Shown here: piece by piece, positions 13,513 through 14,940 of the stretch
Layout: the number at the start of each line of letters is the position of its first letter
Numbering within the stretch: position 1 is the stretch's first letter
Assembly: GCF_054482595.1 (NCBI RefSeq)
Contig: NZ_CM137008.1
DNA: 64,000 bases
Reading direction: 5' to 3' (one strand)
Notes under the pieces: generated by a model
What the model was told of the DNA's origin: nothing
The model's input: only the letters and a program-made list of their open reading frames with translations
Database searches by the model: none
Made by a program: the position numbers and the translations under genes

Positions 13513-14940
13513 ATGAGCGATAAAAAGAAGCGCAGTATGGCGGGTTTGCCGTGGATCGCGGCGATGGCCTTCTTCATGCAGGCACTTGATGCCACTATTC
13601 TGAATACCGCCTTACCCGCAATCGCTCATAGCCTTAATCGTTCTCCTCTCGCGATGCAATCAGCCATCATCAGTTATACGCTGACGGTGGCGATGCTTAT
13701 TCCGGTAAGCGGATGGCTAGCCGATCGCTTCGGTACGCGTCGCATTTTTACCCTTGCCGTGAGTCTGTTCACATTGGGTTCTCTGGCCTGCGCACTTTCT
13801 AATTCGCTACCACAGCTGGTTGTCTTCCGGGTTATTCAGGGGATAGGCGGCGCAATGATGATGCCTGTTGCTCGGCTGGCCTTACTGCGCGCTTATCCTC
13901 GTAATGAACTTCTTCCAGTATTGAATTTTGTCGCCATGCCGGGTCTGGTGGGGCCAATTTTAGGCCCCGTTCTTGGCGGCGTGCTGGTCACCTGGGCAAC
14001 CTGGCACTGGATATTTTTAATCAATATCCCCATAGGTATTGCGGGCCTTCTTTACGCGCGCAAACATATGCCCAATTTCACCACCGCACGACGCAGATTC
14101 GATATCACTGGCTTTTTGCTGTTTGGCCTCAGCCTTGTTCTCTTCTCAAGCGGAATAGAGCTATTCGGGGAAAAGATTGTCGCCAGCTGGATTGCCTTGA
14201 CGGTAATTGTCACCAGCATCGGGTTACTGCTTCTCTATATTCTCCATGCGCGACACACGCCAAACCCATTAATTTCATTAGATTTATTTAAAACCCGCAC
14301 TTTCTCGATCGGTATCGTAGGCAATATTGCAACCCGTCTGGGGACCGGTTGTGTACCGTTCCTTATGCCATTGATGTTACAGGTAGGATTTGGTTATCAG
14401 GCGTTTATTGCCGGCTGTATGATGGCACCGACAGCGTTAGGTTCCATTATTGCAAAATCGATGGTTACCCAAGTCTTACGTCGTCTGGGCTATCGCCATA
14501 CGTTAGTGGGGATCACGGTGATTATTGGGCTAATGATCGCTCAGTTCTCTTTGCAATCACCGGCAATGGCGATATGGATGCTGATCTTGCCGTTGTTTAT
14601 ATTAGGGATGGCTATGTCGACGCAATTTACCGCGATGAATACCATCACACTTGCCGATCTGACCGATGACAACGCCAGCAGCGGTAACAGTGTTCTGGCG
14701 GTCACGCAGCAACTGTCGATTAGTTTAGGCGTTGCTGTAAGTGCGGCCGTCCTTCGCGTTTATGAAGGGATGGAAGGCACAACGACTGTCGAACAATTCC
14801 ACTATACGTTTATCACGATGGGCATTATTACTGTTGCTTCAGCAGCAATGTTCATGCTTCTGAAAACAACCGATGGTAATAATTTGATCAAAAGACAGCG
14901 TAAATCTAAGCCGAACCGCGTTCCATCAGAATCGGAGTAA
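13513..14940 (+). CDS. hsrA: Major facilitator superfamily (MFS) efflux transporter HsrA (YieO)
   Basis: 475-aa highly hydrophobic ORF with multiple predicted transmembrane helices and an MFS-like motif ([13 protein letters not shown]). Confidence 0.9.

Follow-up and report, generated by a model that had tools for sequence, protein, structure and literature searches.

Where the genes hsrA and rbsR converge, their coding ends share sequence on opposite strands, and the locus raises the question of whether this overlap is a regulatory device or an ordinary meeting of two real genes. An earlier note on this DNA had suggested that, with the two mRNAs complementary at their 3' ends and no room for independent terminators, expression of hsrA and rbsR could be coupled by transcriptional interference or antisense pairing. 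Our analysis of the window (the whole stretch of 64,000 nucleotides) and of related genomes leaves such coupling plausible in principle. Very probably, however, two real genes simply converge and overlap here in an ordinary way that reference annotation already records, and the overlap would have arisen by the steps proposed below.

The hsrA coding sequence (yieO; 13513..14940, plus strand) was identified from its open reading frame, its matches to Pfam MFS_1 and NCBIfam NF007799, and the K-12 annotation, and that of rbsR (14906..15898, minus strand) from its open reading frame, the NCBIfam RbsR equivalog, Pfam Peripla_BP_3 and the K-12 annotation. The ORF listing confirmed that the two 3' coding ends have 35 bp in common (14906..14940). 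Each stop lies inside the other coding sequence (hsrA TAA, 14938-14940; rbsR TAG, seen as 'cta' at 14906-14908), and this stretch therefore codes on both strands, as also indicated by the annotation of K-12 and by sequence identity with it. Neither frame contains an earlier in-frame stop, hsrA being open from 13513 to 14937 and rbsR from 15898 to 14909, and neither is mis-called at its 3' end. Within the overlap, codon position 2 of hsrA lies opposite codon position 3 of rbsR, and positions 1 face each other. Comparison with the K-12 junction gave the same picture. MG1655 (NC_000913.3) annotates rbsR at 3938227..3939219 (+) and hsrA at 3939185..3940612 (-), an identical 35-bp overlap, and all 35 bases are the same in the window, which excludes a sequencing frameshift. 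A 601-bp stretch across the junction was present at ≥95% identity in 5414 of 5426 complete E. coli genomes, and even the full-length E. coli match of lowest identity retains the 35-bp overlap in its RefSeq annotation. Identical hsrA and rbsR ends recur in 34 loci of other species and in over 5,380 genomes of E. coli. For E. coli, some 75 convergent overlaps of coding sequences have been reported; that of hsrA and rbsR is already annotated, conserved and ordinary, and its overlapping transcripts have already been catalogued.

HsrA is a DHA2-type MFS transporter of 475 residues that matches Pfam MFS_1. Its best family model, NF007799 (459 bits), is named for the paralogue MdtD and aligns with residues 13-465 of 475. 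Codons 466-475 (14908..14937, plus strand), which begin where this match ends, form a lineage-specific C-terminal extension; they are exactly the codons that lie wholly within the overlap, where the opposite strand encodes the conserved C-terminus of RbsR. Short-type homologues have 461-467 residues and end in '...LIKERHK..'. RbsR, the LacI-family ribose repressor of 330 residues encoded by the last gene of rbsDACBKR, is covered by the equivalog model NF007743 from residue 1 to residue 330 of 330 (697 bits), and its match to Peripla_BP_3 extends to residue 329. Since the family models reach residues 329-330, the C-terminal residues encoded by the overlap are part of the RbsR fold.

The naming of hsrA merits a comment. 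RefSeq/PGAP labels it 'mdtD, multidrug transporter subunit MdtD' in every E. coli genome listed, and the K-12 annotation gives hsrA, putative transporter. The score of HsrA against NF007799 (459 bits) exceeds the subfamily cutoff of 426, and the name of the paralogue has thus been propagated onto hsrA. The genuine mdtD (yegB) belongs to the mdtABCD operon, elsewhere. As for its own operon, hsrA is the second gene of yieP-hsrA (PMC11340327). The first, yieP (12798..13490, plus strand; ORF, annotation and PMC11340327), encodes a GntR/FadR-family regulator, and transcripts of the yieP operon run into the overlap.

We then considered which of the two frames governs the shared sequence. Among 35 sequences with the 35-bp type of overlap, variability was 0.61 bits at the third codon positions of rbsR, as against 0.17 bits at the first and 0.26 bits at the second positions. 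The peak at rbsR third positions, which are the second positions of HsrA codons, indicates that the rbsR frame sets the pattern and that the residues of the HsrA tail change freely. The third-position value of 0.61 bits within the overlap compares with 0.98 bits in the next 90 nt of rbsR, and this reduction, in a sample of about 10 codons, would fit some constraint from the hsrA tail. The antisense of rbsR contains 24 stops in the hsrA frame, about one per 14 codons, so that a read-in of 10 codons by hsrA is typical of chance.

The history of the overlap was examined in 80 loci of Enterobacteriaceae other than that of the E. coli window, with one genome per species. The genera sampled were Escherichia, Salmonella, Citrobacter, Enterobacter, Leclercia, Lelliottia, Kosakonia, Kluyvera, Phytobacter, Pluralibacter, Trabulsiella, Yokenella, Franconibacter, Siccibacter, Buttiauxella, Atlantibacter and others. 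Loci were located with tblastn, and stop-to-stop overlaps were measured by following each frame from where its alignment began to the first stop. In all 80, rbsR is convergent with hsrA and lies immediately downstream of it, and none of the 80 has a spacer of more than 3 bp between the two stops. The length of the overlap, on the other hand, varied. It was 35 bp in 34 loci and 4 bp in 25, the latter with a shared stop of the form (T/C)TA(A/G); further classes were -2 bp (eight loci), 9 bp (six loci) and 53 bp (five loci), and single loci had -3 bp and 24 bp. Overlaps at loci L056, L082 and L079 measured 4, -2 and 4 bp, respectively. HsrA ranged from 461 to 477 residues across the loci. RbsR had 330 residues, with minor C-terminal variants, and ended in (A/V); a length of 336 residues was seen only in the five loci with a 53-bp overlap (L029, L033, L034, L036 and L043, from Lelliottia, Huaxiibacter and one Enterobacter MAG). 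In these five, the rbsR stop has also been lost and RbsR has gained six residues (SAGGDL-like) from the antisense of hsrA, which shows that either partner can lengthen.

When the junctions of the 80 loci were aligned on the rbsR stop, three different hsrA frames were seen to enter rbsR in different lineages. The same anchored listing showed that the window carries, at 14906..14909, the four letters 'CTAA', identical in sequence and position to the shared stop of the 4-bp group; the TAA at 14907-14909 is out of the hsrA frame in E. coli. A midpoint-rooted neighbour-joining tree of the HsrA and RbsR proteins showed the 35-bp and 53-bp states in two clades, the first comprising Escherichia, Salmonella, Citrobacter and Intestinirhabdus and the second Enterobacter, Leclercia and Lelliottia, with short overlap states on every deeper branch. 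The two clades carrying the 35-bp state are not sisters in this simple tree, which would fit either two gains, or one gain and one loss. Taken together, the sequence comparisons suggest that the ancestral genes had stops that abutted or were shared, and that the 35-bp overlap reflects a later, derived extension of the HsrA C-terminus, probably brought about by a frame change in its lysine/arginine-rich tail.

A few loci deserve mention in their own right. An assembly filed as 'Chryseobacterium sp. 18061' (L035; CACSKA010000004.1) carries an enterobacterial hsrA-rbsR locus that sits beside 'Citrobacter sp. 18056' in the tree, and looks mislabelled or contaminated. In E. coli JNE181771 (L084; NZ_AP027156.1), a natural deletion fuses a C-terminally truncated hsrA to a truncated rbsK; it removes the overlap and the whole of rbsR, and both remnants are annotated as pseudogenes. 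A compendium of mutation hotspots seen in evolution experiments likewise includes rbs genes and hsrA (PMC6120903).

How the two transcripts end bears directly on the proposed coupling. A consensus scan of positions 13000-17000 found no intrinsic terminator at the junction, and shuffled sequences folded at least as well as the two 3' regions (181 and 201 nt) and the overlap (71 nt), with z-scores for the overlap (14890-14960) of +0.1 and +1.5. The junction had no Rfam match at gathering thresholds. A hairpin on the rbsR strand at ~14826-14880, 25-80 nt past the rbsR stop (z = -2.3), was considered as a possible 3'-end stabiliser and rejected as a conserved element, being restricted to Escherichia and showing no conserved pairs in an RNAalifold comparison of 25 species. 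In published Term-seq data, no 3' end was recorded on either strand of MG1655 3938900-3939499, which spans the junction, under three growth conditions (Adams et al. 2021, PMC7815308); expression of the rbs operon was probably low in those media. The published 3'-end datasets examined likewise yielded no 3' end for the rbs-operon or rbsR transcript, and the TRS supplements contain neither gene name and no junction coordinate.

For the hsrA strand, however, the same study lists a Rho termination region at MG1655 3938923 (-), described as 'antisense rbsR', with a Rho score of 2.78 (p = 7.6e-6; PMC7815308, Suppl. file 2). Reads upstream and downstream of this position were 102 and 32 in untreated cells, and 164 and 143 in the presence of bicyclomycin. 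Converted from MG1655 coordinates, the region falls at ~15202 in the window (15150..15250, plus strand), 262 nt past the hsrA stop; the position is approximate, as the measurement used 800-nt windows and a single growth condition, and it concerns the hsrA strand only. Just ahead of it, at 15041..15180 (plus strand), lies a candidate Rho loading region, in the part of the hsrA 3' UTR that is antisense to rbsR and modestly C-rich and G-poor. The C/G ratio there, on which this suggestion is based, is 1.15-1.5 in 60-nt windows from +101 to +240 past the hsrA stop, and the first 60 nt are G-rich (0.45). The claim that the overlap leaves no room for independent terminators is therefore imprecise and, in that form, unsupported, since it takes for granted that terminators sit between genes: there is no intergenic space and no site resembling an intrinsic terminator at the junction, but termination is possible inside the opposite gene, so that each transcript can end independently. 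The hsrA transcript has its own termination region, within rbsR, at an approximate position.

The same scan and the same 3'-end data bear on other parts of the rbs operon. The only convincing site in 13000-17000 was a strong intrinsic terminator, GCGCCACCCTAACACGGTGGCGC followed by a T-run, at 16852-16874 (minus strand) between rbsB and rbsK. This is the 3' end of the sRNA RbsZ annotated in K-12, and corresponds to a very abundant Term-seq end at 3937278 (PMC7815308); the site had no Rfam match at the gathering threshold. The annotated start of rbsR is a TTG located 3 nt past the rbsK stop (TGA cgc TTG; 15896-15904, minus strand), with an in-frame ATG at codon 4 (M-A-T-M...), and this spacing suggests translational coupling of rbsR to rbsK. 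Within the 5' part of rbsR, Adams et al. (2021, PMC7815308) record a Term-seq 3' end at MG1655 3938325, 98 nt into the gene, as well as Rho termination at 3938387 (Rho score 3.77); these correspond to ~15800 and ~15738 of the window (minus strand), respectively, at or near the palindrome ATCGCTTCGTCAGTGAAGCGAT (15804-15825). They may reflect premature termination that limits rbsR relative to rbsK. Further away, a complete rRNA operon (16S, tRNA, 23S, 5S and two more tRNAs; rrnC in K-12) occupies 7096-12317 (minus strand), ~480 bp upstream of yieP, and it is presumably at this repeat that many drafts of other species break, ~1 kb upstream of hsrA. Rfam matches to the STnc410 sRNA (38682-38839, minus strand; 188 bits) and to 'Rev39 5' UTR' (3586-3875, minus strand; 158 bits) are unrelated to the overlap.

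Overlap of the coding sequences means that the hsrA and rbsR mRNAs are necessarily complementary over at least 35 nt, as the earlier note had held, and published RNA data agree. The rbsR-hsrA pair is among 165 convergent excludons found from RNA-seq coverage in at least 50% of 58 MG1655 transcriptomes (ExcludonFinder, PMC12288877, Table 1). In the accessible part of Table S3 of Huang et al. (2020, PMC7373196), a p19-captured, perfectly paired duplex of 22 nt with 2-nt 3' overhangs is annotated 'hsrA rbsR'. Its strands, AUGGAACGCGGUUCGGCUUAGA and UAAGCCGAACCGCGUUCCAUCA, have unique exact matches in the window at 14905-14926 (minus strand) and 14907-14928 (plus strand), respectively, so that all but base 14905 of this RNase III-cut duplex (14905..14928, both strands) lies within the overlap. 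The strands were represented by 158 and 232 reads (1.85 and 2.72 reads per million), which the accessible part of the source sets against thresholds of 1 per million for listing and ~23 per million within 200 bp for a cluster. Among the duplexes listed there, similar ones occur in rbsB and rbsC, neither of which has a convergent partner, and a stronger one in yieP. The duplex can be taken as a sign that each of the two transcripts extends through the overlap, that they pair in vivo, and that RNase III cleaves the paired RNA, although the level is low and background-like.

These observations would fit the following sequence of events. The genes stand tail to tail across the Enterobacteriaceae with no spacer between them, an arrangement that most likely started with stops that abutted or were shared. 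In the lineages of Escherichia-Salmonella-Citrobacter and Enterobacter-Leclercia, the lysine/arginine-rich end of hsrA would then have undergone a frame change of one base that put this stop out of frame, with the consequence that translation of hsrA continues for 10 codons into antisense rbsR until it meets a chance stop. The added HsrA residues would be a tail, probably cytoplasmic, under little or no selection of its own, and the RbsR C-terminus, as part of a fold, would be the conserved sequence. As neither intergenic DNA nor a hairpin terminator separates the genes, polymerases coming from either side run on into the gene opposite. Rho would end the hsrA-strand transcripts ~260 nt inside antisense rbsR, and the end of the rbs-operon transcript is presumably set by Rho or by polymerase collision. 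The overlapping 3' ends may pair, with RNase III cutting them at a low, background-like level, and any regulatory effect of the overlap is probably small.

An alternative is that the overlap is a selected regulatory excludon, in which ribose-induced rbs would send polymerases and antisense RNA into the 3' end of hsrA, or an activated yieP-hsrA operon would do likewise to rbsR, and one operon would lower the other because polymerases collide and RNase III cuts the 3' ends that have paired. Stops no more than 3 bp apart in 80 of 80 loci, the place of the pair in the ExcludonFinder core list (at least half of the 58 transcriptomes), an RNase III duplex within the overlap in the accessible data, and the fact that neither gene is shielded by an intrinsic terminator speak for such a model, and the lack of a spacer in every one of the 80 may have been selected for the sake of overlapping transcription and not simply tolerated. 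However, the length of the overlap is labile (-3 to 53 bp) and changes through frame changes in a dispensable tail. The duplex, at ~2-3 reads per million, lies near the listing threshold of 1 per million and, among the accessible entries, resembles those of rbsB and rbsC and falls below that of yieP, and Rho halts transcription of the hsrA strand within ~260 nt. In addition, ribose catabolism and HsrA are not known to be functionally linked, which also counts against the model. We consider a selected excludon unlikely. Its most specific form, in which the absence of spacer and terminator has been selected across the Enterobacteriaceae as a ribose-responsive excludon of yieP-hsrA efflux and the ribose operon, with induced rbs silencing hsrA or the reverse via polymerase collision and RNase III, appears a shade less likely again.

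A second alternative concerns the way in which the transcripts end. Under a collision-type, overlapping bidirectional terminator, a pause hairpin at the junction would make converging polymerases collide, and those of either direction would stop at fixed sites without the help of Rho. Terminators of this class are described as prevalent where E. coli genes converge (Ju et al. 2019, according to bioRxiv 10.1101/2022.10.23.513370), and the 3'-end datasets examined give no end for the rbsR transcript. Against it, the overlap contains no local hairpin (z-scores of +0.1 and +1.5), the junction has no terminator-like site and no Term-seq 3' end on either strand in three conditions, and read-through on the hsrA strand is sensitive to bicyclomycin. 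The one notable hairpin nearby is that on the rbsR strand at ~14826-14880 (z = -2.3), found only in Escherichia and with no conserved pairs. A collision terminator at this junction is thus very improbable. Finally, that one 3' end is mis-called and the proteins do not overlap, as might be thought from the last 10 HsrA residues lying outside the family model and being missing from many orthologues, was rejected as having next to no probability, because stop codons are not a matter of choice in frames that stay open to 14937 and 14909, the RbsR equivalog model aligns through the last residue, and the same ends recur in K-12, in the more than 5,380 E. coli genomes and in the 34 loci of other species.

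Read as an ordinary convergent overlap, the junction carries little weight alone, as the overlap is in the reference annotation, its transcription in an excludon catalogue and its duplex in a published table. Its value is comparative and modest: it provides a worked example of how an overlap originates, through repeated frame changes in a dispensable transporter tail set against a fixed repressor C-terminus, and of a gene pair that has persisted without an intergenic terminator through a whole bacterial family. Should ribose induction prove to be coupled to HsrA expression, the locus would offer one tested case of an excludon and a first hint on the role of the uncharacterised HsrA.

Among known systems, overlapping bidirectional terminators (Ju et al. 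2019; for example, ynaJ-uspE) resemble this locus in that a convergent pair has overlapping transcripts. The hsrA-rbsR pair, in contrast, lacks a hairpin element and defined 3' ends, and shows Rho dependence on at least one strand. The locus also resembles 3' UTRs that run antisense to an adjacent gene and are ended by Rho (Adams et al. 2021, PMC7815308). No intrinsic terminator is present, and read-through that is sensitive to bicyclomycin occurs ~262 nt beyond the stop; the untranslated RNA ahead of this point is modestly C-rich. The data here concern the hsrA strand only, and the position is made approximate by the 800-nt windows and the single condition. Termination of this kind, Rho-dependent and running antisense from an mRNA 3' UTR into a neighbour, was reportedly described by Peters et al. 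in 2012 and by Dar & Sorek in 2018.

Convergent excludons (ExcludonFinder, PMC12288877; reviewed in PMC7154746) are alike in that transcription of neighbouring genes on opposite strands overlaps; the pair is in the MG1655 list, and the accessible duplex data contain a perfectly paired RNase III product at the overlap. The hallmark of an excludon is mutually exclusive expression, however, whereas hsrA and rbsR are known by overlap alone, with background-like double-stranded RNA and no evident opposing functions. Convergent overlapping pairs formed by 3' extension after stop loss or frame-shift (Huvet & Stumpf 2014, PMC4161906; PairWise Neighbours, PMC2716372) likewise comprise two bona fide genes on opposite strands whose overlap was made by movement of a stop, and in which one gene, here rbsR, bears the constraint and the other, here hsrA, contributes a dispensable tail. 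The hsrA-rbsR overlap differs in its length, 35 bp rather than the 4-bp shared-stop form of 25 of the 80 related loci, and in that the hsrA stop appears to have been moved by a frame change and not by a point mutation in the stop itself. The hsrA-rbsR pair thus belongs to kinds of arrangement that are well known, namely convergent overlapping genes and convergent excludons.
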